NCBI GenBank assembly: GCA_965153455.1
Contig: OZ234493.1
Span: 1,488,001-1,552,000, forward strand
Direction of reading: 5' to 3'
From: Sphagnum compactum
Lineage: Eukaryota
Length of the DNA stretch: 64,000 bases
In this document: positions 1,107 to 64,000 of the stretch, in pieces
Numbering within the stretch: position 1 is the stretch's first letter
How the letters are laid out: each line of letters opens with the position of its first letter
Notes under the pieces: model-generated
Database searches by the model: none
What the model was told of the DNA's origin: nothing
The model's input: only the letters and a program-made list of their open reading frames with translations
Program-made: the position numbers and the translations under genes

Positions 1107-4100
1107 ATGGTATTGTGGAACATGCACGGGGGTGGTGTAAATAAACTAAAATGAGGGTGCAAATACTAGAGCTATTTCAGGATGCTGACCTTGTCTTATT
1201 AACCGAAACCTGGCACTTCCCATGCCAACATTTGCCACACGTTGAAGGGTTTGACTCGCAGTAGCGCGCACTATGTAGCCGGGAAGAACAAAAGCGATAA
1301 AACATAACGGGGGGGTTGCCGCTTACTTTCACAGCCACCTCGGCCCAAACCTGTCACAATGGAAGGAAGGAAGCCATGATTTTTATCTATGGCTACGGGT
1401 CAGCGAGGGTGCTGCTCCTGACTTGTATGTCTGCGTGGTGTATGCTGCCCTTGTTGGCTCTAAACACCAAAACGAATCCTTGTTCCAAAACCTGGCAGCA
1501 GATATTGCTGAAGTTTAAACTCTAGGGGGCATATTATTATTGGGAGGGGATTTTAATGCACGAACTGCAACATTACCAGATACCATCGACACTAGCGACC
1601 TTTGTGAACTATTACAGGCACCTGAGTTCGTTCAGACTGAGTAACCAAGTGCTGTGGCTAAGTGACAGAACCGCGACGCTAGTGTTGGCGGCTAGGGCCG
1701 CGAGTTCCTGGACCTATGTTCTGACACTGGGTTGCTCATCTTCAACGGCCGGACACTTTGACGATGAATCAGGGGAGTTCACTTGCATGGCAAATGGGGG
1801 GCGTAGCATTGTCGATTATATTGTTGGCTCACTTGCAATTTGGCAAGCTGCTACACACCTCGAGGTGATAATAGATGACACCTGCTATTGCGCGATGGGG
1901 GGAGACTCTGACCACAGGCCGTTACGCCTACGGTTGAGCATCGATTGTAGCTTTGTTGAGCCACAACATACAGTTGTAACAAAAAAATTCTTACCTAGGT
2001 TCAAATATGATAAATCAAAGAAACCTATGGGTTGTTGACTCAATCGGGCATCGTGGGGCAAACGGGTTAGCTGACCTACTGCAGTAGTGCGTGGGTGCTG
2101 CAGCAGAGTCAACTTTAGGCAATAAGCCTTTGGGAGGAAACTGCAGAGCGCAACATTGCCATAAACCCTAGTTTGATGCTGATTGTCGTATAGTGAAGCG
2201 GGAGCTGAGATTCTGGCTGAAAGCCAACCCCGATTCGCACACCACTAAACATCAGGCAAGTAAACTCAAAAATTTATTAAAAAGGAAAAAAAATTCTGGG
2301 AAACTGCAAGAGCTCAACATATGTGTACGTTTGCCAAGGTGGATGCACTTTCGTTTTAGAAAAAGTACCGGCCAAGGGCACCCGTTGTGGACAAAATCAG
2401 TGTAACTACGCTTTTGGAAGGCTTCCACAGGCTAGTTGGCCAGTCTTTGCCACCCATACGGCTGCGAATTGATCACTCGGTCCAGCTGACGGAACCTCCA
2501 CCTAGCCACACCCTAAACACAGATATCACACTTGCTGAGCTGCTTCAGGCGCTGAAGAAGCTACAAAGGAATAAGGCTGTTAGTTTGGATGGTATGAAAG
2601 CTGAGTTCATTTTGGATGTGGGAGAGCAGCTACACATGCCACTATTGACAACGTTCAGTTGCTTTCTGGCAGAAGGTATGCCATAAGCCCTTTCCACTGG
2701 GGTGGTCCACGCACTCTTTAAAGGGGCGATGCCTCCGAATTTGACAACTACAGGGGGATAACTATTGGGCCTATCCTAGCAAAACTGTTCGCTATGATCC
2801 TTGACAAAAGGCTGAGCAAGTGGGCTGAACAACATGAGTTGCGTGCCAAGGGTCAAGCTGGGTTTCGCAAAGATTACCGCACTACTGACCAACTCTTCAT
2901 ACTGCGAACTTTGATAGAACAGAGCAAGGCAAAAAAGAAGCCATTCTATTGTTGCTTTGTGGACTTTAAAAAGGCGTTCGATACTGTGTCGCATGAAGTG
3001 CTGTGGGAGGTGTTGGCTAGCCTCAGGGTGGAGGGACGCTTCTTGCGATGCCTACAGGCGATGTATACCAAGGATACCGTATGCATCAACCACCCAAGCG
3101 AAGGTGTCACCTCCAGCTTCAGGTGCCAACTAGGTGTGAAGCAAGGTTGCCCTCTCAGCCCCCTATTGTTTGGGCTATATTTGGATGCCCTCGAGGGGCG
3201 CTTGGACGGCAGAGAATGCGATGCACCGACCTTAGCAAATGTGCACGTATGGCTGTTGCTTTTTGCAGATGACCTTGCTCTGATGTCGAAATCAGAGGTG
3301 GGATTGCAGCAGCAGTTAAACGTGCTCCAGCAGTTCTGTGCTGAACGTGGACTTACAGTGAACATGAAAAAAACAAAAGTCATGGTGTTCAACTCTGCTG
3401 ACCCATGCCAAAAGTTTTTGTTTGAAGGTGATGCTATTAAGCGTGTGCAGACCTTCAAATACCTGGGGATCCTGCTCGAGACCACCCCGAACCTAAACAG
3501 TGCAGTGGAACATCTAGCAGCTGCCAATAGGCGCTCGCTGTTCGCATTGAACCGTCGTTGTGCGGAGCTACGTATTATGGACATCCAGTTACGCTGTGAC
3601 CTCTTCAACACGTTGGTGCGTTCCACAACAAGTTATGCTTGTGAGGTTTGGGTGGACTCCAAGAAAAAAGATGCTATTGAAGTAGTGTACCGAAGGTTCT
3701 TCAAGTCCTTGCTCAGGGTGCGAAAAACAACTAGCATGTCCATCGTGCTAGCAGAATTTGGCAAATTCCCCTTTGAACACTTTGCATGGGAACAAGCGTT
3801 GTTGTACTATAACCGTGTGAGCACGATCACTAAAGACCGCATCTTAGGCAAGGCATGGGAAGCCCAACTCACTATGCTTGCTCTGAGAAAGAACTGTTCG
3901 GCAAGAACTGTTGGGCTAGATCCGTGAAAAAATGGCTACTCAAGAATCAGCCCCAGGAGGTGGCAGGTTTTCTGGCTCTGGTTCAACCGTCGTTGGAAAC
4001 GACGCCTAAGCCTGCAACGACCCATGTGCTCCAGGCAAGGACTGCTCAACCGCTAGAAACGACTCCTGAGACAATGCACATACACCCGACCCGTGTAGCA

Positions 4101-7961: not shown

Positions 7962-10458
7962 TCATAGCTCCCAATTTGAATCATCAACATTTTGGCTTTG
8001 AGTTGCACCTGTTGTGCTCTCGGACGTGCATCCACTCTGAGCTGCGCTCAAACTAGTGATCCACACATCATCTGCTATAATAGGGATAGCATCTTGATTG
8101 CGATTCCAGCTCCAGTGTGCATGTGTGGCATTGAAGATTTCAAGTTCACCATGTCCAAAGCTGGACTCCCGGAATACTGACCACACAGGTTGGGGATCCA
8201 GCCACCTGTAAAACACACCTCACCCCATAAACAAAGCTTACATGAGCTGATGAAGAATCTTGACTATCATTGGACAATGTGTATAGAGTCTCTTGTAAAT
8301 GGGTTGTTGTGATTGAGTGATTATTGATCTCTTGAATAGTAATTTGCGGCATTCTTGATTTCAATGCAATGGGGGTGATAATACAGACTTACGTTCCTGC
8401 AAGACCTTCACGGTTTCCTCCGTCGCCAATAGTGATATACAGGATTCCACAGGGGTCTGGTTTTTTCAGATACGCTCTTTCCTGGTTATATTACACAAAC
8501 GTAAAAGTGCTCAGAATTTCAGTTTCAAATGTTTTTCGCTACTCAGTCAATCAAGCTCCAGGAGATCAACGATGAACCCAAGTCTAAGAAAGGCTGGTTG
8601 CTTTGTATAAATCTGAGTAGCTTACCGCACGCTCGTAAGCATGGACATGACCAGCAAACATGATATCCACCTTGGCAGCATAAAGAGTAGACTCCAATGC
8701 TGCCATCATTGCATCTCCTTCACCCTGATGGGCAGTGTTGCTATTGTACCAGGGTGCATGAAGAATTGCGATTAGCCATGGCGTCTTGGTTCTATCCACT
8801 TTTTCCAGATCTGCCTGTTATCATAACCAGTTGCATGCACACGGATCAGATCATCAAAATTTCCCCAGAATTTTGCATTGAAACATAATTCCTAGGGTTA
8901 AGATCAGACGAAGAGGGATACTACATCACATGGTGCCATCATTGTTCTGAATTTTTGTGTGAGAAAGAGGGGGGGGGGGGGGGGGGGGGGGGAGAGAGAG
9001 AGTGTGTGTGTGTGTGTGTATGTGATGTCGACAAACACCTGAAGCCATTTGAACTGTGTAGAATTTGTATCGAAGTCGGCATAAGATCCCAGCATCAGAA
9101 TGTGAACCCCTGCAACTTCGAATGAGTAGTAGAGATTGGAAGAGGATCCGCTCTCGTTGTAAGGCATTTCCCAGCGGGTGTTGTAGGACAAAAAGCTTTC
9201 CACGAGGAGAGGAATGTCTTCAATCTCATGGTTTCCTTCTGTCACCATCCACGGCCGATAATTCGCGTATGGCGACACCATCTGCCCGAAACTGTCCCAT
9301 AAAGGTTGCCACGTATCGGCGTAAGACAAATCCCCAGGAAACAATAACACATCGTAATCATAGCCTGCAAGGTGCTCCAGAGTAGTTGCCGTCCAATCAG
9401 TTTGTCCCAGATCACCTGCAGCAATACATTTCCAAAACCGCGAGGTTATTGATCCATTAGCAGCATGCAAGCAATTCAGATCCAAGGCAATGCAGCTGCG
9501 GCATTCATTCTTTTGCAATAGCTTCACCTGTGGAGTTATGAGAGGACTGTGAGCGCAGTTAGCTGCAAAAACACAATGGAAAGCTGCTGTAATCACATCC
9601 GCCTAATGGAAAGATGTCCTTAATTAGTGCTTTTCGAACACGGCAAAAACTAAATCAAATGCAACAAATGTTCCTCGAGATAAAGACAGTTTTGCAAGGC
9701 TTTTTTCTCAGTGCTCCTCTCGCAGTTTTTGGAATATTGAAAGCTAGACATGCGGATGCTAGAGGGGGACCCAAAACCCCCTGCAAAAAAAGAAAGACTC
9801 ACCGACAACTGCGAATTTGATGGGCACATTTGGGCCAGAAGGAGGAGGAGTGGTGAAATTAAACTCGGCGCCGAAACCGCCACACTTGTAGAAGTAGGTG
9901 GTGCTGGGATCGAGTGGACCCAGAATCACATCGTGGATCAGACCAGATTCGTATAAAATGAAACAATATTGTTTGGTGACACCACTTGCAATATTCGTGT
10001 AGTGCCCCGACGTTGTCCCATATTGTACAGTCGCTGGCACTGCACTGGAGGTCACCCATGTCACCTTCATCTTTCCAGGCCCGGCCAGAGAAACATGCAT
10101 CTGTTCGCACCCGCCAATTCTTCAAAAATCAGCAGTGCAAATCTAGACCCCGCAACAAGCAAGCGAGAAAACACGTACTAGAAGCAGACCCTGCTAGGAA
10201 TCTATTGCAATTCACATCCCGTAGACGAAATTCCCGCACCTGATCAGGATCGGTGCTTGCAGTCATGTTCTTCCTCTCTTGAAGGAGCTTTTCGACCGCA
10301 TTGCTCTTGGCAGGAGCTAATGGCGGCCTCTCGTATGTCGAGGATTGGCCAGCCACAAATTCTCCCAGGAAAACCAAAAACACGGCAAATACGAGAGTTG
10401 CAAACTGCAGCATCCTGGCCTTACGCCTTGATCTTGCTCCTCCTCCTCCTCCGTCCAT
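7962..10458 (-). CDS. PAP: Purple acid phosphatase (PAP18/PAP22-like), 6 exons: 10240-10458, 9803-10100, 9039-9415, 8626-8814, 8393-8481, 7962-8205
   Basis: All introns are GT-AG and phases join in frame. All five metal-ligand blocks are present ([28 protein letters not shown]), plus [17 protein letters not shown], an FN3-like N-domain (HVSLAG..VTW) and a hydrophobic signal segment. An alternative ATG lies at 10470. Confidence 0.96.
8969..9019. repeat. Compound microsatellite G24-(AG)n-(TG)n in PAP intron 3
   Basis: Read directly from the sequence. Confidence 0.95.
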
Positions 10459-47474: not shown

Positions 47475-49491
47475 ATGAAGAGCGCGTCTTCCGGCCGGTC
47501 CAGCTGCTTCGTGATTCTCCATCTGCTGTTGGTTTCGTCGACATATCTATTGTCATCGTCACCTCAGTTGGTGCAATCGACAGCAAGAGCGGACTTTATC
47601 ACTAAGCACGAGAACAATGCCGTCGAGCTGGGCACCAAGAAATCGGCGATTGGCGCCGTGAGTACTATCGTGGTGCATCAAGGGGGCTTAGGGGATTACA
47701 AGACAGTGGGTGAAGCAATTGCTGCGATCCCGCAACACAATACAGCACCCATCACTGTGTACATCCGCGCGGGAGTCTACGAGTAAGAGAATAGAATTGC
47801 TGCAGTGTTGATTCTCACGACCCTTCTTCTCATGCACTTCTGTGAGAGAAGTAATCTGTGCAGCAGCTCGTAGCCGTGGATTGCGGCAAAAATGAGCTAG
47901 AAAACTTCTTCCCGATCATCTGTTGCAGCCGCCTAGTGCGAAGTCTGCTAATGAAAATTGTTCTGTAAGTCCATAGCTGCTGATCAGTAGTTGCTGCTGT
48001 TTTCTGCGGGTTTCAGGGAACAAGTTGTGATTCTAAAGACGCAAACGCATGTCACATTGGTAGGAGACGGTCGAGACGTGACGAAGATCACCTCAAAACA
48101 GACTGCAGGAGCCACTGGCACCACCTACACATCATCAACCTTCGGCATCAGTGCTCCATACTTCACTGCCAAGAACATAACTTTCGAGGTACCCAGGTCG
48201 TGCAGTTCCAGCTGCTGCTGTGGATTCATCAGTTCTCCTCATGTGCAAGCAAGCAGTGATCGCGGCCTGATCATCGATGTTGCAGATGACTCTCTCTAGC
48301 TAGCTAGATACGTCGATATTGAGAGCTCCAAGCTGTACGTTGCTGCTGCTGCTGCTGCTGCTGAATGCTGATTTGTTTGGACATGTGTTTGTTGCAGAAT
48401 GCTTCGCCGATTCCTGTCGATGGTGCTGTTCAACAGCAAGCTGTAGCACTGAGGACAACAGGCGACTTCAATGCCTTTTACGGTTGCGGGTTCTTGGGAG
48501 GTCAGGATACCTTGTACGATGACAGAGGTCGACACTACTTCAAAGACTGCTTCATCCAGGGCTCAGTAGACTTCATCTTCGGCGATGGCACGTCCTTGTA
48601 TGCGGTGAGAAGAAGATAGCTGGTTCCTTGAAGAAGCTGGTTCTTCCCGGAGCCGCCTGTAATATGCAGCTCCAGGAAGCTTAAACCCAGCTTCTTCGTT
48701 GATTTCTAGTCCGATGTTTGTGTATTCCTGTGGTAAGTAAGAATGGGTTTTGATCGGATTTATTCTCAGAATGTGTTTGATCGAGTTGTTCTCAGTATGA
48801 CAATCAAGCTGCCTGCCATGGATCTGTGCGTGCCTGCAGAATTGCCAGCTGAATGTGATTGCTACAGCCGGGGGCGGATCATTGACGGCGCAGAAAAGGA
48901 TGTCTGCCCAAGAGCAATCAGGGTACTCGTTTGTGAACTGCGTGGTGACGGGAACTGGACCTCCAGCTGTCTTATTGGGACGAGCATGGGGAGCTTACTC
49001 GCGCGTGGTTTTCTCCTACACTTATTTCGACAACATCATCGCACCACAGGGCTGGTTTGATTGGAACATTCCTGCAAGACAAAGGTAAGAGCTCAGAGTC
49101 TCCACAGGCTTGGGCTGTCTCCTGCACGTGTTCAGTGGATGATCTTCATCAACACTAGAACAACAACAAGAGCTGTAGAAGAGCTGTATTAGTCTGATCT
49201 AGTATTGGGTTAGAAGACATGTGTGGCGTCGACAAGCTAGCAAAGTCGTTCCCATGTTGCAGGCTGCGGCAGCAGCTATGATGCTGGATTCTGGCAGACA
49301 TGGAGATGATTTTATTGTGTGTTCTGGGAATGTGCAGTACGGTGTTCTATGCGCAATACAAGTGCACAGGTCCTGGAGCAAATGAGAATGGACGGGTTGC
49401 ATGGTCTCATGAACTCACTGACGCTGAAGCTGCTCCTTTCCTGTCCACCTCTTTCATCAACGGCAACTTGTGGGTTGACGCACAGGCCTAG
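47475..49491 (+). CDS. PME: Pectin methylesterase (pectinesterase, CE8), without PMEI pro-domain; 5 exons: 47475-47782, 48017-48188, 48398-48604, 48840-49084, 49338-49491
   Basis: GT-AG introns with in-frame joins. Canonical motifs [43 protein letters not shown] and YKCTGPGA, with an N-terminal hydrophobic signal peptide. Confidence 0.96.
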
Positions 49492-49869
49492 AAACACACA
49501 CCACAAAGTTGTTCATTTCAATCCTCCTTAGCTCATCCCCAGTTTTTCCCACAGCAAAGCTCACGAGATCAACTCCAGCTCATGGGGTCTTCTAAGTGGT
49601 AATAAAGCTGGGAGCTGGAAGGCATTGTAGCTAGCTGGTGGACCATCTGTCGACCATTCAAGAAACCGCACACAAAAGTTCTCAATTTCTCTCAACATTA
49701 AGATGCAGAAGAAGAGCTTGTCGAATTCGAGGTAGTCCCATGTCTGCAATCGTGGAACTCGTCCATGAAAGAGACACATCTACGAGTCCTTTCGTCGTGG
49801 TGGTCTCACCGCTCCCAATCGACCAGGGCTATCCAAACGCGTGAAGGCTTGGGTTCCAATCTAGACCCA

Positions 49870-49980
49870 AGATTTAGGGTTCAGGGTATTTTCAAAATTC
49901 AGAGTTTAGGGTTTAGGGTATTTCCAGAACTTAGATTTCTGGAGTATTTCCAGGGATTAGGGTATTTCCAGGGTTTAGAG
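49870..49980. repeat. Degenerate telomere-like (TTTAGGG) interstitial motifs
   Basis: tttagggt, tttagggtttagggt and ttagggt interspersed. Confidence 0.5.
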
Positions 49981-51639
49981 TTCGGTGTACTGGAGGATAT
50001 TGGAGAGTGTCAGTCACTCTTGGAGGTTGGAATGTGTGGTTAACTTAGGTCTTGGAGAATTTAATTATCTGTTGTGGAATTTAGACAGAAATTATGGGAG
50101 GCTGATGCATTAGTCTGTCTCTTCTTTGATGAACACTTAATTCCCTTTCTGCTCTTCTTCTTCATTCCTATTCAATAAACTTACATGTCTATCAATTCCA
50201 TCAGCTCATTGTTCAAGGGTGGGTTAAGTTCTGTTGTTGCCATCCAAGCTATGCTCACTGCCCGAGCCTATTTTGTTGCTTGCCTGATGAGAACTGAGAG
50301 ACACTTCCCTGGGCAGAACTTTCAAATATACGGGTCATTTCCCCCACTTCAAATCTACTAAACACCTTGATCTCACTCCAAGCTCGCCACACAACCCTAC
50401 CTCACCTAGTTGATTTGGGTTTGCCATTTTATGGTAGTCCAGGAGGAGAAGAAGAGCGGCCCAGGTGGAGGGGTATGGGTTTAGGGTTAGGGTATGGCAG
50501 ATATGGGATTAACCAGGAGGTACTTCAAGTAATTAGTTGGCAGTTTCTGCAGTGATTTTGTGAATCTCTCTGTCATCAGCAGCTAGGCTGGCTGACTACA
50601 ATGACCACTACCAACCAGAATGTGGATTCTTTCCTAGTACTAATAAGGAAACCAGACTAGGTATAATTAACTACTTATCAAGAATTCCTTGACAATTGTG
50701 GACTCCCAGTCTCCAACCAACGGCATTGGTAGTGACAACCCATCCAGGAGTACTATAAAGTGCATAGGAAAGTTGATAGTAGATCCTACAAGCGAGCTAG
50801 TACGAATTTTCAACCTCTACATTCTTCAAAATAGAAATGTGTTTCTTGCTTGCCATTTGAAGAGGCCCCTTGAAGAAGCTTTTCTTTTTCTTTTTTTCAT
50901 CTTAGCAAAAAGATAAAATATATATACAACAAGAATATGCTGTTTCAGATTATTTCACATTCAGATCAGATAGCTGAAGGGGCCATCATCCATAAGACAT
51001 TATAGCAAATCGGACTACCAAAAAAAAACCATGAAAGTAAACAAAAGTTAAGAATCCTTTTATGTTATTGGAACATAATACAAAAATCTGGCAATTTTTT
51101 AATTTAATTTTCTGAAATTTGGGGACTAGAAAAACCGAAAAACACTTGTTACTGCCATTTGGAAAATATTAAACAGGCCAATATATATTTGAATGCTACC
51201 AATATGAAAGGACTACCCCCCATCACCATGATGTCATCCTTCCCCTTGCCCTCATAACCTCCGGGCTCTCCGTTTCCCTCCCCACATAACAAGTCATCCG
51301 TTCATCAACATCAATTACACCAGCGTCACCTATTTTGCGTAACGAACCATCAACATCCCCATCCCCATGGTACTCTTATGCCATGCATGCCATACCACCA
51401 TGTCTTCTCGCTGTCATGACAACGGACCTTTTCGCTTTAGAGCATTGCCGTCATCCTTCGTCATTGCACATGTTTTTTGCGTTTTGTATCGCACAGGCTT
51501 GCAACATCCCCCTCCATCATTTCTCTACGTGCATGTGCCCATTGTCACATGCTCTTGCAACAGCTTTGGTTCTTCTCTGATGCCTTTGTCGTTGATCGAT
51601 TACATCAATACAATTGCTACAAGTGCTTCTACAACACCC

Positions 51640-52630
51640 TATCCAAGTGCATGCATTGCCCAATTCGAAGATCCTACATTGCTTGTAGTTTGCTTGTAGA
51701 AATTACATGTTATTAACTTCGTTGTAGAAATTACATGTAGAAGAAGTTATCTCTACTTAGCAAGCTGGATGCATGAATTATAGGTGGAAGTTCATTTTTC
51801 AGTCCCTTTCCGAAGCTGCCAAGTGCACAGTTTTGTTCAAATCTACATGGAGATGTTTTTTCCCTTCCTTCTTCATTGTTACCTTCATTAGTTTGGTCAA
51901 AGTCTTCAACATCTTGCATCTCCCAAAATGATCCGAATTCCCCCTTCTTGATTAGATAGATAGCAATTCCTTGATCGCATGTTTCTTACAAGTATTATTC
52001 TTTCATTTGATTTCAACTATGCTCAGTGACATTCTACAAAAGACCTAGCTCTTCTTAGTGATCCCTAAATTCGAAAAGGTATGCATTGTTCAGCAGTTTC
52101 CCTTGTAACATGTACATATTATTAAGTTTTCTTGTTTCCATGGTTTTTTTTTTGTTTCTTTTCCTTTGTAACCTACAACTCATTTCAAACAAAGCATTCA
52201 ATTAGATTGTAGTCCTAGGCTTTCCCTTATAACATGCATGCCCACAAATTGTCCCCATTTTGTGCTAACAATGTCTTTGTGGTGCCTCTGTAGATCAATT
52301 GAATCACATTGTGTAACCTAAAATTCATTTCAACAAGGTACTCATTCCAAGCAACCTCAATAAATCCTTTGTAACATGCCCACAAACAGTGTTTAATTCA
52401 CTATCTTGCCTAAATTGCCCTATTTTGTCAACTCAATCTTAATTGAAACATGACTTACTAAATGACTTTTTAATTCCAAGTAACATGTCCATGCCTTGTA
52501 ACAAGCCCCCCCTTACAATAGTTTACCTTGTGAGTCCTTTGATGGAACTTGTTTGATGGTGTTGTAACTAGGTCCACTTGCTCAAATAATACAATGATTC
52601 CAATTTCATGTAACATCTCACAACATACCC
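51640..52630. repeat. Left long inverted arm (pairs with about 63003-64000)
   Basis: 51640 tatccaagtgcatgcattgcccaattc.. is the reverse complement of the window end. Both arms translate MQDVEDF.Q.NEGNNEEGR.KTS on opposite strands. Confidence 0.93.
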
Positions 52631-52930
52631 CCAAAAGTTACAATTGTTGTGTCTTCAACTCACTATGAAGTTAGTGGTAACTCCACATGATGTACCTAGA
52701 AGTTACATGACAAAGGACCCATGTTCATTGATAAACATGTACACAAAATAGAAGTTAATGGTGCTTGTCTTAACACATGTTACAAGCGCATTCTAAAGCT
52801 TGTAATTGAACTAAACACATGACGTTTGCACCATGTAACACACCAAATACCTACAATGCCCACTCTTCATACATTTATCAATCACTTTCTAGAAAATCCC
52901 TATGACACTTTAAGCTCCAACCATTATTGT

Positions 52931-55900
52931 CTAGGTTGCATTTGAAAGTTGACTCCTTATGAGAAGGATGTAACAATCCATTTTGAATTTCTGCTTGAAG
53001 TGTTTTTTGCTTGCCACTAATATTTTGCAAAACAATTTGTTAGAACAATACAAATGTTCCATCAACAACATGTTATTTCGTGCTTCCTCCAACAATTCAA
53101 ATTGAAGGCAACAAATTTCATCCTCTAAATCCACCTTGGATGATGCTTTTGGGCTCCTTGATGTTGGTGGAATGTACTACACATTGCTTAGTGAATTGCC
53201 TAGCTACCTAGTAGCACTCAATAGATTTTGGAACCCTTCATGAATTGTCCCTTTCAAAGCACCACAATAATGTGTTATCGTACCTTTTACAAGCTCAGGA
53301 TGAAAAAGTTGGAGTACTTTGACTTGGTGCTTGCAAATGTTCCCATGTGCATACAGGTAGTCGCAAGATGCCCATTCAGATTTTGGATTGTGAACGCAAT
53401 ACTTTTTGTGAAGTTGCTTCCTGGACATAACTAGTGCCACTCTAGAATTGCTAGTTGGTAACGCGACACAAGCATCTAGATTCATCTTCACCTTCAAGAG
53501 CACATTAATGACAAATTGTTCTCATTTTTTATTTAAAACAAATCCATGGTTTTTTTTGCAAGGACTGGTACCAATAATGAAGCAAAACATCACCAACTAA
53601 TTCATGTATTGCCCAATCCACACGTCTCCCATGGAATCTACCCTTAAAGGAATGAAGGGTGGCCTTCAGATTTGCATGGTAGTTCTCAATGGCCACATTA
53701 ATATCATGCCCTACGTAAGGTAAGTTACGGTTACCCACCACCCACATTTGAGTTTTTTATAGCCATTCAAACTTTATGTAATTCCAAAATGAATTAGCAG
53801 TGGGCATTTCATTTGCTACCCTTGCAAATTCAACTTTTGCCCATGGATCCAACTCTTGATCATTTGGGCAATCTATGTTGTACATTACATTTCCCAACAC
53901 CTTGAGTGCACTTGCACGAGTAGAAGCATCCTTAATTTTAATGCATGCTTGCTTCAACTAAGTTCTTTTGACATGTCACAAACATAAAAATATCTTTGTT
54001 CCTAGCCATACTTGCCTGGTCACATGCAATCAAACTCCAGTTATGTAAAATGAACATAGGGGTACATTCACACTACAACAAAAGGTGTCCTTGTACGCCA
54101 AGTGATTTCACTGGATTTTGAGTGAATTCATCAATTGTAGTGGACGGGGACCAGTGAAGAAGTAGTGAATTCACTGGTTTAGTGAACAGGGACTAATGAA
54201 TTGCACCCACATTTTGTAGCAATGTCAAGAAACTCCAATGATAATAAGATAATTTTAGTAATGTAAATGTAACAAACTTGTAATGTGAAAAGTTACCAAA
54301 CGTGTAGAGCCTAATTACAAACCATGTCACACACAAACTTCACATGCAAAAAGTTGTGGTTACATGCAATGAACCATACTTATCATTAAGATATTATAGG
54401 TATATAATATTTGTTAGAGTTAAAATATGTTATCTAGATAGTTAGGTTGGGTTGGTTGTAAGTTTTTGAAACTTGTTACTTGTGATAGAAAACCACCAAG
54501 GACGAATAAAAACGGTTGTATCATCATGTACCTTAGGTTGTTTATTTCAGCTCGAGCATCATCAACAATGAATGCATTAAGGTGTTAATCAGCCTTAACA
54601 ATCAACAAACTTTTGTTCAAATCATCCATCCAAGGGGACAAATCACATGTCTTGTAACTTGAAATGATTATGTAGGCAATAGGCACACCATTATGCCATT
54701 CATAAAAAACCATCATGGTGTACAATGGAAATTGTGGACATAAGAACACCAAGTTGGCATGTTATATAAAAAACAATGTTACTAATTACAAGTCACAATG
54801 GCATTGTTGGACAAAACTTATAACATGCCACATGAAAAGTTGCAAAAATAAATTACAAAATTACCACTTACATGTTAGAAAATGATAATCATCAACAAAA
54901 CATGTTACATATTAGAATGGAAGGTAGACAACAACATATGTTACAACAAAATACTTGTAACATGCACACACTGAATATTAGGATATTTGCATATATTGTA
55001 TGTTATTGGAACAATGTATCCCTAAAGTAAAAAGATATGGCTACCTTTTTGTCATTTGTTCCGAACATAGCATCAATAGATACACCACTTTCATGTCCAT
55101 GACATAACATCATCTCCTTTTGCCACTTAGTTTGTATGCCGATTGGGAAAGGCATGTTACCACCATGCAAGTTTCTTTCAACTTGAACACTAGATTCTTG
55201 TAGAAAAAAATCGTTTCCCTGTTTTCAGTGACCCACATTCGAACATTTTTTGCATCATTTTCATCTTTCTTGTAGGTTTCTTTTGCAAGATTTCCTGCTA
55301 GGTTACAAACATCTTGCTCACATAAAAAGAAATCCCTTGACAGGTCTCCATTTTTCTCCATGATTTCCTTAACTCAAGATTTGTGCTTGTTCATAATTTG
55401 ATATATAGAAAGGCCCAAGCAAAGGTTTTCCAAAACAAAGGATTTTATTTCCTCTAATACATGGGCAAAGAATGCTAACTTGTAACCAGATTTGACATTA
55501 CCATGGACAACAAGACACAATTTGTTGACATGTTGAAAAGTGGCATAAGAAACTTCAGCAATTGTCAGGTGAAGGTAAAATCTTTTTAAAGTGAATGCAC
55601 AACAACACCCTATGAATCTCCTTGGCTTTTCATGGAAGTTCAAAGACCCTTATGCCCTTGGCAATCTCATTGCCTTTGTTTTTCCTCTTGGTTTTCTTGG
55701 AGGCCATGTTGGGTTGGAGCATTTGCATGGTGCCAGAAGAATCTGTTAATCCATATTCACAGTGGTACTTGCGTAGAATTCAATGCCATCACGCACATTG
55801 GTGGATGCATACAAACCTTAATAATGTAAACTAAAATGTATTATGACATGTCACATTAATCTAAAAATGTGCATGCAATATTATATGTTAGAAATAAATG

Positions 55901-56481
55901 GTTTAATAAAGCCTAATTGACATTCCCACTTTATAATATATATGTTCATTATGTTCTACAAGTATTGCATTGTAACAATGCTCTCACATAACTTTAATGA
56001 ACAACGACAATCAAGATTAGTTGATGCCTTAATTTTTGCATGATTGTTTTACGTATGTCTTTGAAATAACATGTACAATCATGTTACATGTTATGGACCA
56101 TTAACTTTTAGTTGATTTATCGCATGCTTCTAAAATAGTTGTTCCATCGTGGATTTTTCAAGTATTCATTGACCCAGTTGTCTTTCCGGATGAATTTGCA
56201 TTGCGCATCCCCTCTTGTTTCTTCCCTAGCCAAGAAATCATGAACTTTGTCCCATGGAATATATGCCACATAAACCTTTTTTTGAATGCATGTGCCATCC
56301 ACAACATGTTGTGGACAACGTGTTGTGGAGTTACATGGTACTCATTCCACCAACAAATGTCCTTATAGTTAAAAAGACATGGAGGTGGTTATTAAACATG
56401 TCCCATCATTACTTCCAAAGTTTCTTTACATTAATCCATGTACACTTTCCCATAATTTAAAATTTTAGCATATCAATGCCA
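52931..56481 (-). pseudogene. MULE-family DDE transposase with SWIM zinc finger, intron-containing, disrupted
   Basis: Exon remnants read YIPWDKVHDF (about 56250), GCCCAFTLKR, GIQTKWQ..SIDAMFGTNDKK (D1, ends 55045), FPLYTMMVF..GVPIA..AFIVDDA (D2, 54532-54731), FLC.HV, NVAIENYHANLK (E) and SWIM CD(Y)..GNICKH. Multiple stops and frameshifts. The putative first codons lie beyond the copia insertion (62599-62629). Confidence 0.85.
54071..54224. mobile_element. 154-bp CACTA mini-element in a transposase intron
   Basis: TIRs cactacaacaaaaggtg / cacattttgtagcaatg (13/17), perfect 3-bp TSD TCA, and repeated internal agtgaattcac motifs. Confidence 0.8.
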
Positions 56482-56795
56482 TGTTAACAAATAGGAGATC
56501 TACTCAAGTGCAAACATAAAACTTTATTGAAAGGAAACTATAACACGATGCTCACAACACAAAACACAAAATCAAGAACTCTTCAAAGTTCTTATCACAA
56601 GAAATACACAAACTTGTGTAATGAAGAAAAGATAAGCAAACCATCAACACCAAGGTATTTAACTAAAAAGACCAAACCACAAATAACCAAACTAAAATAA
56701 GTAACGAAAGTAATTCAACCTTGTGAAAGTAACCTAGTTACTTTCCTACTCCAGTAACTAATGAAACCTAACTAGTTGAGCTTGAATTCTCAACA
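56482..56795 (-). repeat. Copia 3' LTR (314 bp)
   Basis: 4 substitutions versus 62285-62598; preceded on the minus strand by the PPT ttgagggggag (56796-56806). Confidence 0.97.
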
Positions 56796-59700
56796 CTCCC
56801 CCTCAAGCTCAAATCCATTTTTAGTACACCAAACATTTTTCTAAACTTCTTTAGCTTGTCTGTACCTAAAGCCTTTGTGAAAATGTCAGCAACTTGATCT
56901 TCGGTATTGACATGAATGAGGTTAATTTCTTTTGTTAGAAATTTTTCTCTAATAAAGTGGTAGTGCACCTCAATGTGCTTTGTCCTAACATGATAGACCG
57001 GGTTGTTAGCAAGTAGTATGCTACTAAGGTTATCACAATAGATGACAACAGGAGCATCCACTAACTGTCCCAAATCTGAAAATAGTTTTTGTAACCAAAC
57101 TACTTCACATGCAACAATTGTTGCACCTCTGAATTCTGCTTCCGTGCTTGATAATGCAACTGTTGGTTGTTTTTTACTGCTCCAACTAACAGCACCACTT
57201 CCAAAAGAAAACATGAAACCACTGGTTGATCTTCTATCTGAACCATTGCCAGCCCAATCAGCATCCGTGTATCCATGTACTTGTAACTGGCTCTTGGCTT
57301 CATAAAAAATTCCACATTGCAAGGTATGTTTTATGTACCTCAGTATGCGCTTCACTGCATCCAAATGTGGCTTTCGTGGTGTTTGCATGAATTGACTCAC
57401 CACTCCAACTGCATAACTAAAATCTAGCCTTGTGATGGTCATGTAGATCAAACTCCCCACTATGCGCCTGTACATAGTGGCATCCTCCACAAGGTCTCCT
57501 TCATCTGCACTTAACTTCACATTTTGCTCCAATGGAATTGAAATGGGTTTGCACCCTGTCATCCCATATTCGGATAATTTGTTCAAGGCATATTGCCTTT
57601 GTAGTAACCATATCCCTTTCGGGGAATGGATTACCTCAATGCCGAGGAAATAACGCAACTCTCCCAAATCCTTCATCTCAAACTTTTGCTTCAAAAGCTT
57701 CTTCAAATCAGAGATGTCTGCATCACTATATCCTGTGATAATCAAGTCATCAACATAGATGACTATGACTACAATCCCATGATTTGTCTTTCTCACATAT
57801 AGTGAAAAATCTGCATTGGATGTTTGAAATCCACTTGTGACAAGATATTGTCCAATCTTATCTGACCAAGCTCTAGGTGCTTGTTTCAAGCCGTACAACG
57901 CTTTCTTCAACCTACAAACCAAATTAGGATGTGTTTGGTCCACATAACCTGGTGGTTGTTCCATGTACACTTCTTCCTGTAAATCTCCATGAAGAAAAGC
58001 ATTCTTTACATCCATTTGATGTAAAGACCATCCTTTTGTTATTGCCATAGCAATGATTGCTCTTACAGTTGTCATTTTGGCAACTGGACTATAGGTTTCT
58101 TCATAGTCTATGCCATAAGTTTGGGCATAACCTTTGGCAACCAATCTTGCTTTGTATCTGCTCACAGATGCATCTGCATTGTGCTTGACTTTGTACACCC
58201 ATTTGCACCCAATTCCTTTCTTGTCCTTTGGTAAAGCTACTAATTCCCAAGTAGCATTCGCATCCAAAGCCACCATCTCTTCATCCATGGCATTGTCCCA
58301 CTTAGGATTTCCAACCGCTTGTTTAAAACAAGTGGGTTCAACCTCTTGTATAACTCTCACCATGTATGCGTAATGATGAGCTACAAAGCCATCATATGTG
58401 AGTCTTTGTACAGGGTACTTGACTCGTGTGGATCTTCGTACTCCAATGTTGTTGTCAGGTGTTTTCAAAGCTTTCTTGACCATCCGAACTCCAGGAGTAG
58501 TAATTGAGGTGATTCTTGATTCTTCACCCTCACTCTTCTCTGACTCACTTGATTCACCATCTACATGAGAATTTCTAGATGATGTTTGTGAACTACCATG
58601 TACAATGTTTGAAGATCTTAATCTTCCTTTCCATGGAGTGCTACTGGACCCACTAATTGAAGATTCTTGTGGTCCACTAATTAATTGTGATTATTGTTCC
58701 ACATTTGATGAAACATCACCATTTCTAGCCTCTCCATCTTCTGCTATCTTCAATGGTGAATACCAACTAATCGTCTCATCAAACACAACATCTCTACTCA
58801 CTTGTAACTTCCAAGTGGAAGGGCTAAAACATCTATATCCCTTTTGTTCTGAAGAGTATCCAATGAAGATACATTTCTCAGCTTTTGGGTCTAGTTTTGA
58901 TCTCTTCTCATTAGGAACATGCACGTATGCAATGCAACCAAACACTCTAAGGTGTGAAACATCGGGTTTCTTGCCTGTGAATTTTTCTTCAGGTGTCATG
59001 CCATGAACTGCCGTTGTGGGTGTTCGATTCATGATGTAGATTGCAGTTGCTACCGCTTCAGCCCAAAAGTAATTTGGCAAATTCTTCTCATTCAACATGG
59101 CACGTACTATTTCTGCAATGTGCCTGTTTTTCCTTTCAGCAACTCCATTCTGCTGTGGGGAATAACTACATGAGTACTTCCTTTGAATTCCATGCTCCTT
59201 CAAGTACTCACTGAATTCATTTGAAAAATACTCTCCCCCTCCATCGGACCTTAGGCACTTGATGCTCACACCTTTCTCCTTCTCCACCATTGCTTTGAAA
59301 TTCAAAAAATATTGAAACACTTCACCTTTGTGTTTCATGAAGTAGACCCACACCTTCCTTGTGTGGTCAACAATGAAACTCACGTAGTACTTGCATCCTC
59401 CAATGGATTCTGTCTTCGTGGTCCACACATCTGAGTGGATCATTTCCAAAGGTTTGGAACTTACATGAATTGTTTGAACTGGGAAAGGATGCCTAGCTTG
59501 CTTCCCCAATTGGCATGCTTCACAAACCTCTGACATCACCTCTTCTGCTCCAAATTTGGGAAGACCTCCAACAAGTTTTTGTTTCTCCATGAACTTAAGA
59601 CGTCGGAGATTAACATGGCCAACTCGCTTGTGCCAAATTCCAATGTCTCCAGCTCCTTTTCCATGTGTGAATAACATGGAATTCACCTCAGGCATGTTCA

Positions 59701-61063
59701 CATCCAAGGTGAACATTCGTCCATTCCTTTCCCTTTTTGCAATCAATTTGCCTTAGTTCTTCATGTCTTCCACAAAACATCCATTTGGGTTGAATGTCAC
59801 CTGTAAACCTTGTTCCACCATCTGGCCTACGGAGACCAATTTTTTTGTTATGGTTGGAACATGAAATACATCTTTCAGGTACTTTGTTTGCCCATCTTCC
59901 ATGGACAATGGCACCTTGCCAATTTGTGTGATGGGATGTGTATTGTCATCACCAGTTTCCACAAACCCTGGTGTCTTCAAATCCTTTGCGTCTCTAAACC
60001 ATTCTCCATGGCTAGTCATGTGGTTTGAAGCTCCAGAGTCCACATACCAGACATTGTTATCTGATACACCTCCTATCATTGAATTTGCCATGTGCTGCAT
60101 CACAAACAGTTGCTCATCACCTTGATTGCTAGTTGATGCATAATTCCCTTGTTGTAGCTTTCCATTTCGTGCATCATGCTCCCTTTGATAACAGTTCTTT
60201 GCCATGTGCCCAAGTTTCCCGCAGTAGTAGCAATTTGAATCGCTATTTGGTTGTTGACCTCAATGACTTCCACCACGACCTCCACGACTTCCTCGACTTC
60301 CTCTTCCTCCAAAGTTTCCTCGTCCACCTCCATGAGCTTGACCTTCATGTTGTTGATGTACACCATGCGAGCTTCCGGGTCGACCTCGAAATGAGGTTTT
60401 ACCACCTCTGCCTCTACCTCTATTGGTATTTGAGTAAAAAGCACTTTCTTGTGATCCTCCATTGGATGAAGTACCAACAATTCTCATCTCTTCACTTATA
60501 AGTAGTGTTATTAAGTCTTGGAAGTTGGAAAATGTTTCTCGAACTGCAATTGAGGTACGGAATTGACTATAGTCTTTTCCAAGTCCATTTAAGGTCACGG
60601 CCACTAAATCTTCATCATCTACAGGGGCTCCTATAGATGCAAGAGCATCTGCAAGGTTTTTCACCTTTGTAGAATAGTCATTGATGTTCGTCTTGTTTTT
60701 CTATAGATTATGCAACTCTTGCTTGAGCTGCATTTTGCGGGCTTGTGTATTGGTGCTGTACATCTTCACCAATGTATCCCAAGCTTGCTTGGGTGATTTT
60801 GCATCTTGAATATGCACAATCATGGAATCGGACACACTCACAGAAAGCCAATACAAGACTTTCCTTGCTTTTTCATGCCAAGTTTTATTAGCTTGAATTT
60901 GTTGTTGTGTGGGGTTTTCTAGGAGAGGAGGTTCTTTTTCATCACCAGTTATGAATTCCCAGTAGCCTTTCCCCATCAAGAAATTCATAATCCTAAATTT
61001 CCACACTTGGAAATTGTTCTTGTTTAGTTTCTCAATTGCAATTTGAGAAAGACCGTCCGCCAT
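56768..61063 (-). pseudogene. Copia gag-pol polyprotein, single frame with 4 premature stops
   Basis: Gag (NFQVWKF, UBN2-like; CYYCGKLGHMAKNC knuckle), PR (WYVDSGASNHM), GAG-pre-integrase (WHKRVGH..CEAC), IN (HSDVW, RSDGGGEY, NGVAERKN), RT (YKARLVAKG, YVDDL) and RNase H (DADWAG, KHIEV). Confidence 0.96.
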
Positions 61064-62272
61064 CTCTCAAGGCACTATTCAATGTCTTCTTGGGGTTTCA
61101 AAATGACTTTAATTCCTTCCTTGGATTTCTAGGGTTAGGGTTAGGGTTTTTCTTCCTTAGGTTTCTAGGATTAGGGTTAAGGTTAGGGCTGAACAAGATA
61201 GACCTTGCATATGTATGTATGTCTTGAGTATTATACGGAATTCTATATTATACATAGGTTTTACGTATAGGTACGTATCTCGTATAATATTTCGTATGGT
61301 ATTAAATACATGATTACATACCACACTTTTGTACGAAGGTCTTGATAATGTATTTGCGCTTCCCAATCTTCAAACTCCTTCCTTCAAGTTCTCCCAAGTT
61401 GTATTTGCTCCACTTCAAAACTTTGTTGTCTTCTCAAAACAAACTTCTGTCACAGCAACTTTGCAAAGCTACTCCACACACATATGACCTTGGATCGAGG
61501 GAGAAACATAGAACACTATGTCTACTACCTTCTCTCAAAATTTCAGCTCATTTAACTACATAAATTGAGAGATCTTGCTACTTCTTTGAAGTCACCTCAA
61601 ACTGGGACCTGAACACAAAATGACTTACAACTCGCTCTCAGCAACTCCAAAATCCTTGAGATTTTGGGAGACACATAAGATATATGTCTTCTATATCTGC
61701 TCAAAATTTCAGCTCTATTGATGATGACCACAAAGAGATATCACTTTCAAAAGAAATTGACTTCAAAACTGAGACAGAAACTTCAGATGCTTGGATCTCT
61801 ATCTATACAAATTCAAATGACATGAAATTTCTCTCACACATACATTCCTATATGATCTATAAGATCCCAAAGCTCCAGATCCAAAAAAGCTCAAACATAG
61901 GAGATATGACCAAAAAACCAGATCTAATACAGAATCTTCAAAAGCTTATAACTCCCACAAAACAAATCTTTTTCACTTGAAATTTTGAGAATAGAAGCGT
62001 CTTATAGTCTTCTATAATCTCTTAAAGTTTCACTCCAAAAAAATTTCACAATAGATCTAGATCTAGACTTAAAGATCTGATTTCCACAACTCTTGATATG
62101 TGGATCTCCTCTCACCTCTTTTCTTTTCTTTTCTTTCTCTTCACTTTTTTCCTTTCCCCGTTTCTCTTTTGCACTTGACAAACTCCTATGATATTACTAG
62201 AGACTCTCAAGCTCTAGTTCTAAAGACTTTCTAGCTCTAAATCTCTTTCAACTTTCTCACCAAACAACCTAA

Positions 62273-62284
62273 GCTCTGATACCA
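62273..62284 (-). other. Primer-binding site (tRNA-iMet), TGGTATCAGAGC
   Basis: gctctgatacca immediately adjacent to the 5' LTR. Confidence 0.95.
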
Positions 62285-62598
62285 TGTTAACAAATAGGAG
62301 ATCTACTCAAGTGCAAACATAAAACTTTATTGAAAGGAAACTATAACACGATGCTCACAACAAAAAACACAAAATCAAGAACTCCTCAAAGTTCTTATCA
62401 CAAGAAATACACAAACTTGTGTAATGAAGAAAAGAGAAGCAAACCATCAACACCAAGGTATTTAACTAAAAAGACCAAACCACAAATAACCAAACTAAAA
62501 TAAGTAACGAAAGTAATTTAACCTTGTGAAAGTAACCTAGTTACTTTCCTACTCCAGTAACTAATGAAACCTAACTAGTTGAGCTTGAATTCTCAACA
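62285..62598 (-). repeat. Copia 5' LTR (314 bp)
   Basis: Matches 56482-56795 with 4 substitutions. Confidence 0.97.
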
Positions 62599-63002
62599 TG
62601 CCACCTTCTTCACTTGCCCTCCTCTCCATAATATTTTTCTTGTATTTCTTGTTACAAGAAGCCTTCACAAGTCAAGAGAAACTATCAAATGTTATAGCAA
62701 ATTGGGATTACCGTATTATGAGGGTAAAGGGGAATAATTACAACAACATCCAACAAGCTTCCCCATACAACTAAAAGTTACATTACAAGATGGGATTGAC
62801 ATTATCTAGTGATCCATGTTACACCTAAGATTTTGTACACAAATTGTGGGCCTATTAAAAAGGACAGATTGAGTACCTTGTTGAAATGAGTTGAAGGTTA
62901 CAAACTATGGCTCAATGGACCTGCAGGGACAACATTGGAACCTTATCAAATGTCACATGAAATAATTTGGGTGACCACATCAAAACAAGTGGGAGTGGTT
63001 AT

Positions 63003-64000
63003 AGGGACATGTTGTGAGATGTCACACGAAATTGGGATCAATATATTATCTGAGCAAGTGGACCTAATTACAACACCATTAAACAAGTTCCATCAAAAGA
63101 CTTCCAAGGTAAAATATTGTAAAAGGGGGCCTGTTACAAGGCATGGACATATTACTTGGAATTAAAATCATTTAGTAAGTCATGTTTCATTTAGCGTTGA
63201 GTTGACAAAATAGGGCAATTTAGGCAAGATAACGAATAAAACACAGTTTGCGGGCATGTTACAAAGGATAAATTGAGGTTGCTTAGAATGAATACCTTGT
63301 TGAAATGAATTGTAGGTTACACAATGTGGTTCAATTGATCTATAGGGGCACCACAAAAACATTGTTAACACAAAATGGGGACAATTTGTGGGCATGCATG
63401 TTATAGGTGAAAGCCTACGATTGCATTATGATTGAATGCCTTGATAGAATGAATTGTAGGTTACAAAGGATAAAAAACCAAAAAAAACCATGGAAACAAG
63501 AAGATTTAATAGTATGTACATGTTACAAGGGAAACTACTAAACAATGCATACCTTTTCAATTCTAGGGACCACAAAGAAGAGCTAGATTTTTCGTAGAAT
63601 GTTGTTGAGCGTAGTTGAAATCAGATGAAGGAATAACACTTGCAAGAAACATGCAATCATAGAATTGTTATTTATCTAATCAAGAAGGGGGAACTTGGAT
63701 CACTTTGGGAGATGCAAGATGTTGAAGACTTTAACCAAATTAATGAAGGTAACAATGAAGAAGGAAGGAAAAAAACATCTCTATGTAGGCACACAACATT
63801 CGGACAAAACTGTGCGCTTGGTAGTTTCAGAAAGGGATTGAAAAGCAATCTTTCACTTGTAATTCATACATCCAAGCTTGCAAAGCAGAGTAATTTCTTC
63901 TACCTGTAATTTCTACAATGAAGCTAATAACATGTAATTTCTACAAGCAAACTACAAGTAATGCAAGACCTTTGAATTGGGCAATGCATGCACCTAGATA
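63003..64000. repeat. Right long inverted arm of the MULE (truncated by the window end)
   Basis: Reverse complement of 51640-52630. Confidence 0.93.

Follow-up and report, generated by a model that had tools for sequence, protein, structure and literature searches.

Inverted arms around a transposase pseudogene

A 64-kb stretch of Sphagnum compactum DNA (GenBank accession number OZ234493.1; positions 1,488,001 to 1,552,000), referred to below as the window and used for all coordinates, was found to carry at its right-hand end a transposase pseudogene located between two long inverted arms (Table 1). The region, which is read on the minus strand, very probably represents a single old and inactive copy of a DNA transposon of the Mutator superfamily (Mutator-like element, MULE), with inverted arms of ~1.47 kb that belong to the element.

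A repeat search of the window identified collinear inverted blocks at 51640-52636 and 62999-64000 that are 81-90% identical, and blastn returned a single alignment of 51640-52626 with 64000-63009 (87.4% identity over 997 columns, 1217 bits, E value reported as 0.0), in agreement with the original prediction, made from the letters of the window, that 51640-52630 is the reverse complement of about 63003-64000. When the two arms were aligned using MAFFT, 871 matches, 145 mismatches (108 transitions and 37 transversions) and 14 gap columns were counted, and the alignment collapsed inward of 52626/63009. Both ends of the match were inspected, and base 64000, the last in the window, pairs with 51640, thus the match does reach the final base, as had been claimed, and is cut off by the window end. 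No further copy of the arm sequence was found by blastn within the 64-kb window.

The gene between the arms had been described as a spliced transposase with DDE and SWIM domains. A search with the 105-amino acid (aa) open frame at 53207-53521 found relatives that include a protein of 654 aa (P0005), and residues 1-602 of this protein were aligned by tblastn to the window in six blocks of 41-57% identity (E values down to 2e-83) separated by intron-like gaps. The gene with introns is therefore present, although as a pseudogene: the tblastn alignments contain no fewer than eight in-frame stops as well as frame changes. Its SWIM finger is degenerate, the CKH part being kept while the CxC part reads SCDY. 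Longer relatives from ferns extended the tblastn match to an upstream exon (56302-56132) and to a cysteine-rich block (GCCCAF...) at ~55610.

The Pfam MULE family (PF10551; cut-off 27.6 bits) was matched by P0005 (4e-10, 40.4 bits), P0041 (55.6 bits) and P0050 (45.6 bits), the SWIM family (PF04434) was matched above its cut-off by the relatives P0002, P0053 and P0055, and matches to PF21056 were also found among the relatives. Judged by these sequence matches, the gene is a member of the MULE/SWIM transposase family.

The wider protein family extends to Ceratodon (49%), ferns, conifers, in which several paralogues are present, and ~700-aa angiosperm genes. Six angiosperm proteins of ~700 aa (P0053, P0055, P0057, P0058, P0060 and P0061) are annotated only as SWIM-type domain-containing or uncharacterised, and are 29-33% identical to P0005 over 78-87% of the P0005 length. 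Going by sequence, these angiosperm SWIM-type genes may be domesticated descendants of the MULE clade.

Table 1. Features of the element, its nested insertions and the corresponding parts of the related copy L013 (window coordinates)
Feature	Position	Strand	Details
Left arm (3' arm of element)	51161..52626	-	1466 bp; inner edge from arm alignment, outer edge from related copies
Right arm (5' arm)	63006..64000	-	Cut by window end; repeat search, blastn and MAFFT; 5' arm of L013 covers the equivalent of 51163-52626
5' subterminal region	62604..63005	-	Between copia site and 5' arm; collinear with L013 2281-2677
MULE+SWIM transposase pseudogene	52881..56302	-	tblastn of P0005, P0001, P0050 and P0056; Pfam match of P0005
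Exon-like blocks of pseudogene	56302-56132, 55700-55036, 54734-54531, 54011-53550, 53557-53042, 53030-52881	-	
TGTAAC cluster (mostly TTGTAACATG-like)	52103..52615	+	7 copies, single orientation, mirrored in right arm
Candidate left target-site duplication of element	51152..51160	.	CTGCCATTT; position follows from terminus at 51161, partner past window end
Ty1/copia long terminal repeat (LTR) retrotransposon	56482..62598	-	6117 bp; RVT_2, rve, gag_pre-integrs, Retrotran_gag_2, zf-CCHC
LTRs of copia	56482-56795 and 62285-62598		314 bp each, 4 mismatches, 98.7% alike
Target-site duplication of copia	56477-56481 and 62599-62603		TGCCA, 5 bp
Miniature inverted-repeat transposable element (MITE), CACTA-like ends	54071..54224	.	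154 bp; starts CACTACAAC, ends TTTTGTAGCAATG; in pseudogene intron
Target-site duplication of MITE	54068-54070 and 54225-54227		TCA, 3 bp
L013, first parts in order	51163-52626; 63001-62604; 56481-52627		5' arm (82%); subterminal region; gene
L013, continued	not in window; 51801-51161		824-bp segment X; outer 590 bp of 3' arm

Related copies in metagenome contigs

Moss-bearing metagenome contigs were scanned with the C-terminal exon, which identified 43 related loci (L001-L043). Nine of these (L001-L007, L013 and L019) match the window gene at 84-88% nucleotide identity, and all except the ninth, the short L019, also carry the arm sequence of the window beside the gene. The order and orientation of arms and adjoining gene are constant across L013, L005-7 and L001-4. 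The original prediction had allowed that the arms might be unlinked to this transposase elsewhere; in these 8 of the 43 loci the two stand side by side, with common termini. Its proposal of a Mutator-like element with arms of more than 1 kb, put at ~1.4 kb, is upheld by the same loci, as in L013, and in two insertion lineages besides, it is again this gene that the arms enclose.

L013 is a complete copy of ~7.05 kb, in which both the copia and the MITE of the window are absent and the gene region runs straight across the two sites (Table 1). Four copy lineages that are 86-89% alike in the gene were distinguished, namely the window copy, L001-L004, L005-7 together with L013, and L019. The first of the contig lineages, L001-L004, represents one insertion in two genomes that are ~2.5% apart. 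L013 and L005-7 are 92.6% alike in the gene and have a common 700-bp flank on both sides (82-96%), thus they derive from one ancestral insertion and count as a single independent case for the target-site duplication (TSD). L005-7 is an internally deleted derivative of the L013 insertion.

When 11 of the 43 loci were tested using tblastn, in-frame stops were found in all 11, with totals of 5-21 summed over the aligned pieces. Arm identities between copies are 78-89%, similar to the values within copies, which are 88-90% for the window and, for L013, 82% in a multiple alignment or 76% by blastn. This star-like pattern of divergence suggests that, at the time of copying, the two arms hardly differed from each other.

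A segment of 0.8-2.1 kb lies between the gene and the 3' arm of other copies (L013 6372-7195, L002 1219-3298 and L001 1919-4026) and has been lost in the window. In these copies it is rich in the TTGTAACATG motif, which is in direct orientation relative to the 5' arm. The L013 form of this segment (segment X) was also considered as a diverged arm, its length being about that of the inner arm of the window, and this was rejected, as the global score was not outside the range given by shuffles and the matches were confined to short motifs. The extra 1.3 kb present in L001-3 includes one 126-aa open frame, which had no Pfam match.

Termini and target-site duplication

Three insertion sites are represented (the L013/L005-7 lineage, L004 and L002/3); their flanks are unrelated, and the mutual similarity of the copies ends at one base. 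In alignments of the window with the loci, this common end base is at 51161-51163, and the window sequence to the left of 51161 matched none of the related loci. The window's own 40-base terminus gave no match when termini were compared among the loci, being too diverged, thus the placement of the terminus in the window rests on the window-versus-loci alignments. Reading inward, the common terminus is GGAAAATGTTAAACA(G/T)GCCAAGGGTCTTGAATG, and the left-arm terminus of the window copy, starting from 51161, is GGAAAATATTAAACAGGCC.

The left end had originally been placed, provisionally, at a GG at about 51210. The related copies move it 49 bp further out, to a GG at 51161-51162, therefore the arm is 1466 bp long. 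A terminal inverted repeat (TIR) of this length can be inferred from the related copies, of which 997 bp are visible in the window. Interpolation of the rise in depth put the left end at ~51160 using raw reads and at 51108 and 51182 using two contig sets, values that are compatible with 51161. The outer 480 bp of the left arm (51161-51640) are C-rich. The right arm should extend ~479 bp past 64000 and end in ...AACATTTTCC-like bases. The predicted full length of the element is 13,319 bp, or 7,043 bp when the copia and the MITE are subtracted, and the arms make up ~42% of this 7.04-kb element.

Immediately inward of the 5' arm there is a second, diverged copy of a unit of ~400 bp (62866-62949 resembles 63285-63368). 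In L001-L003, an inverted copy of the 5' subterminal region precedes or sits within the 3' arm, and the symmetric part of these copies, as read from the contig sequences, may reach ~1.9 kb.

L013 is flanked by TTTTGACAT before and TTTTGACAC after the element, and L005-7 by CTTTGACAT and CTTTGACAC. Each pair matches at 8/9 positions, for which the chance at one fixed register is ~1e-4. A TSD of 9-10 bp had been expected, and in this lineage a 9-bp duplication is found. The TSD begins with T on both sides of the element in L013 and with C on both sides in L005-7, a paired difference between descendants of one insertion that could be due to chance transitions, gene conversion or a mis-set register.

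Motif clusters in the inner arms

The inner 500 bp of the left arm contain seven TGTAAC copies, against a mean of 0.42 in mononucleotide shuffles, and none of 2000 shuffles reached seven. The right arm mirrors this with five copies in the opposite orientation. Clusters of TGTAAC recur in L013 (inner 5' arm and segment X) and in L002 (segment X and 3' arm). Within the inner third of the arm the motifs are spaced ~45-145 bp apart, and form no tight tandem array.

It is possible, though we consider it doubtful, that only the outermost 100-200 bp are the true TIR, and that the kilobase-scale symmetry was a founder accident, arising for example by internal inverted duplication or by template switching in gap repair, and irrelevant to transposition and silencing. 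The inner arm can be lost, as just the outer ~590 bp of the 3' arm survive in L013 and L005-7, and arm extent differs between copies, with an additional inverted copy of the subterminal region from the 5' end present on the 3' side in L001-3. A short TIR is also favoured by a survey across eukaryotes that gives 14-500 bp for MULE TIRs (PMC6446971). However, the whole 1.47 kb is kept as a unit beside the terminus in three lineages, the oriented motif clusters of the inner arms are mirror-symmetric, and in Muta1 both excision and binding of the transposase are enhanced by subterminal repeats (PMC5499845). Furthermore, the truncated form in L013 and L005-7 is a single inherited locus, and so gives no sign of movement after the inner arm was lost.

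Abundance, transcript data and alternative readings

Reads and contigs were placed at 80% likeness on positions 49000-56481 of the window, and the summed contig depths so obtained do not equal copy number. Contigs with the window's own species label (X1) gave a depth of ~29 on the flank, 79 and 124 in the bins covering 50750-51250, 196-354 on the arm and 53-154 on the gene, and the rise in the 51000-51250 bin fits the outer boundary of the left arm. Contigs of a second species (X9) gave 23-38 on the flank, 575-1318 on the arm and 135-481 on the gene, and one X9 contig matches the flank at ~97% over 49000-50269. At variant sites in the arm (51640-52626), the numbers of distinct contigs were 5-11 (X1) and 10-32 (X9), and in the gene 0-3 (X1) and 2-15 (X9). 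The arms and the gene are both multi-copy in the two species, with the arms more abundant.

A polyA RNA run (X22) reached a depth of at most 0.6 on either strand in 3 of the 29 bins other than that of the MITE, and zero on the exon of a neighbouring pectin methylesterase gene. As this host exon is also at zero, the near-absence of X22 reads on the arms and gene is weak evidence.

The arm sequence is ~3x as abundant as the gene in contigs of the two species, and the right terminus of the window copy is unseen, as might be the case if the arms were independent copies of a dispersed repeat, or an inverted segmental duplication, around an unrelated MULE-derived pseudogene. This is very improbable, as the arms have common termini and adjoin the gene in a constant order and orientation in L013, L005-7 and L001-4, and in L013 the 8/9 TSD lies outside the paired arms. 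The excess of arm sequence also fits internally deleted derivatives such as L005-7.

Still less credible is a decayed host (domesticated) SWIM-type gene beside which the repeats are incidental. The protein family does include the ~700-aa seed-plant genes with SWIM-type or uncharacterised annotations described above, and no inverted repeat of >=100 bp was found in the available flanks of the distant relatives (L008-L043). In this search, 0 of 34 distant loci (L008-L012 and L014-L043; 45-70% protein identity) had a gene-flanking inverted repeat of at least 100 bp at E<=1e-10, a threshold that short or decayed TIRs would escape. However, the subfamily of the window is multi-copy, every tested member is a pseudogene, and arms with common ends and a TSD enclose the gene.

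A number of observations weigh against the region being one MULE copy with kilobase arms of its own. The related loci are metagenome contigs that are 86-89% alike to the window and come from outside the window's own assembly, and the right terminus and right TSD of the window copy fall outside the window. Both ends for a TSD are available from one insertion lineage only (L013 with L005-7), and for the L004/L002 pair of the L001-4 lineage the match is 6/9 when no T-run slip is allowed, in flanks from contigs ~2.5% apart. In L013 and L005-7 the element's own inverted repeat spans just ~630 bp, the 3' arm having lost its inner part. For the MULE itself no empty site turned up, thus past mobility rests on the different flanks and common termini. 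No intact transposase was found among the 11 loci tested of 43, and the stop-free exon fragments of the window had no credible Pfam match by themselves, so that the family assignment rests on homologues. The transposase may also have bound the oriented TTGTAACATG-like clusters in the inner arm, which we only infer. Finally, on the unique flank the depth of a raw Hi-C DNA run (X21) was zero, and for this reason the run provides no calibrated baseline.

Nested insertions and neighbouring features

The copia retrotransposon, which was absent from the original prediction, fills approximately half of the distance between the arms. A primer-binding-site-like sequence, TGGTATCAGAGC, adjoins its 5' LTR and a purine tract adjoins its 3' LTR, and the gag-pol frame is broken by four in-frame stops. 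It inserted ~170 bp upstream of the MULE gene, counted from the first exon that can be recognised, and L013 represents a precise empty site, with a single TGCCA.

The MITE had a summed contig depth of 36,884, compared with ~29 in the flank, and piles of loose ends were seen at 54070-54074 and 54218-54219. Its depth is ~1,000x that of the single-copy flank in two moss species, and its sequence is also present in the polyA RNA reads. The MITE site is empty in all four related loci that span it (L001, L004, L013 and L019). The 12.8-kb span of the original prediction is inflated by the copia (6117 bp, to which a 5-bp TSD is added) and the 154-bp MITE, and without these the element would measure ~7.04 kb. 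As arms and copies differ by 10-22% and the copia LTRs by 1.3%, and the MITE site is empty in 4/4 relatives, the order of arrival was MULE, then MITE, then copia.

A pectin methylesterase-like gene with multiple exons was recognised by eye from translated frames at ~47500-49500 on the plus strand, ending ~1.7 kb from the left terminus of the MULE. Two frames of this region, both on the opposite strand, were searched against Pfam and gave no match. Near the start of the window, a 401-aa open frame on the plus strand (2722-3927) matched RVT_1 (E value 1.7e-35) and belongs to another retroelement, and a calcineurin-like phosphoesterase frame is located on the minus strand at 8904-9602.

Proposed history of the element

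In gene orientation, the element would consist of the 5' arm (63006 to beyond 64000), the subterminal region, the transposase (56302-52881) and the 3' arm (52626-51161), and the transposase would have had a cysteine-rich N-terminal region, a MULE DDE core and a SWIM finger. Movement was presumably by DDE cut-and-paste transposition, with the transposase recognising the common termini (GGAAAATGTTAAACA...), and the two arms would have been close to identical while the family was active, as the star-like divergence suggests. The element is likely to have inserted ~1.7 kb downstream of the pectin methylesterase gene. Since then it has lost 0.8 kb or more of internal sequence (~2.4 kb by comparison with L002), its gene has decayed to a pseudogene and a CACTA-like MITE has entered an intron, while the copia arrived much later, upstream of the first recognisable exon.

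The element has no remaining transposon activity. The MULE family to which it belongs is new and extinct, with unusually long TIRs, and all of its tested gene copies are broken. As the element is dead and the copy number is low, the practical consequence for the genome is small.

A more speculative proposal, which we regard as improbable, is that the near-perfect arms of the active family, 1.5 kb long and possibly ~1.9 kb, were the longest TIRs tied to a MULE transposase, and that they served two ends, offering the transposase landing sites at the TTGTAACATG clusters and triggering small-RNA silencing by forming a hairpin. Such a double role would explain both the low copy number and the death of every copy tested.

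Comparison with known systems

Mu killer is a long inverted duplication of Mutator sequence that silences MuDR via a hairpin. The element described here resembles this type of silencing locus in being a long inverted Mutator duplication that would fold to double-stranded RNA if read through. The original prediction had suggested that read-through of the arms could give long double-stranded RNA and siRNA; for MULE TIRs this idea is already published (PMC6446971), and neither of the mechanisms proposed here, hairpin RNA and motif binding, is of a novel type.

Foldback-type MULEs with composite arms have been described, namely Muta1 of Aedes aegypti, MuTAnT of Medicago, Tm1 of Meloidogyne and FARE of Arabidopsis (PMC5499845, PMC4486113, PMC3169594), and for Muta1 the subterminal repeats were shown experimentally to strengthen transposase binding and excision (PMC5499845). 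The family of the Sphagnum element is similar to these in its long composite arms, short subterminal motif repeats and 9-bp TSD. However, its motifs are scattered over the inner third of the arm and do not form tight tandem arrays at the terminus, and the arms make up ~42% of the element, not nearly all of it.

With plant MULEs such as MuDR, Jittery and Hvu_Abermu, the family shares a MULE DDE transposase with a C-terminal SWIM finger, long TIRs and a 9-bp TSD (PMC6446971, PMC9168764, PMC3310237), as well as the presence of internally deleted non-autonomous derivatives with common arms. It differs in that all of the copies tested here are dead. The protein is only distantly similar to that of MuDR, as the Pfam matches are to MULE, the ZSWIM1-3 RNaseH-like domain and SWIM, with no N-terminal MuDR DNA-binding domain.

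A further difference is in TIR length. MULE TIRs are commonly hundreds of bp long, with the survey range of 14-500 bp given above (PMC6446971), in line with the expectation of the original prediction that typical MULE TIRs are a few hundred bp or less. They have also been reported to be longer than 100 bp (PMC5499845) and can exceed 300 bp, those of Hvu_Abermu being 138-145 bp (PMC9168764), whereas the arms here are 1466 bp. No report of kilobase TIRs in a MULE was found in our searches of open-access text, nor was any relevant paper on Sphagnum Mutator elements. In addition, the series of an old MULE, a MITE and a copia near a host gene provides a small, well-dated example of layered insertion. 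A bryophyte MULE family with 1466-bp TIRs, ~3x the survey maximum (PMC6446971), thus widens the known range of a trait that is linked to transposase binding, promoter activity and host silencing.

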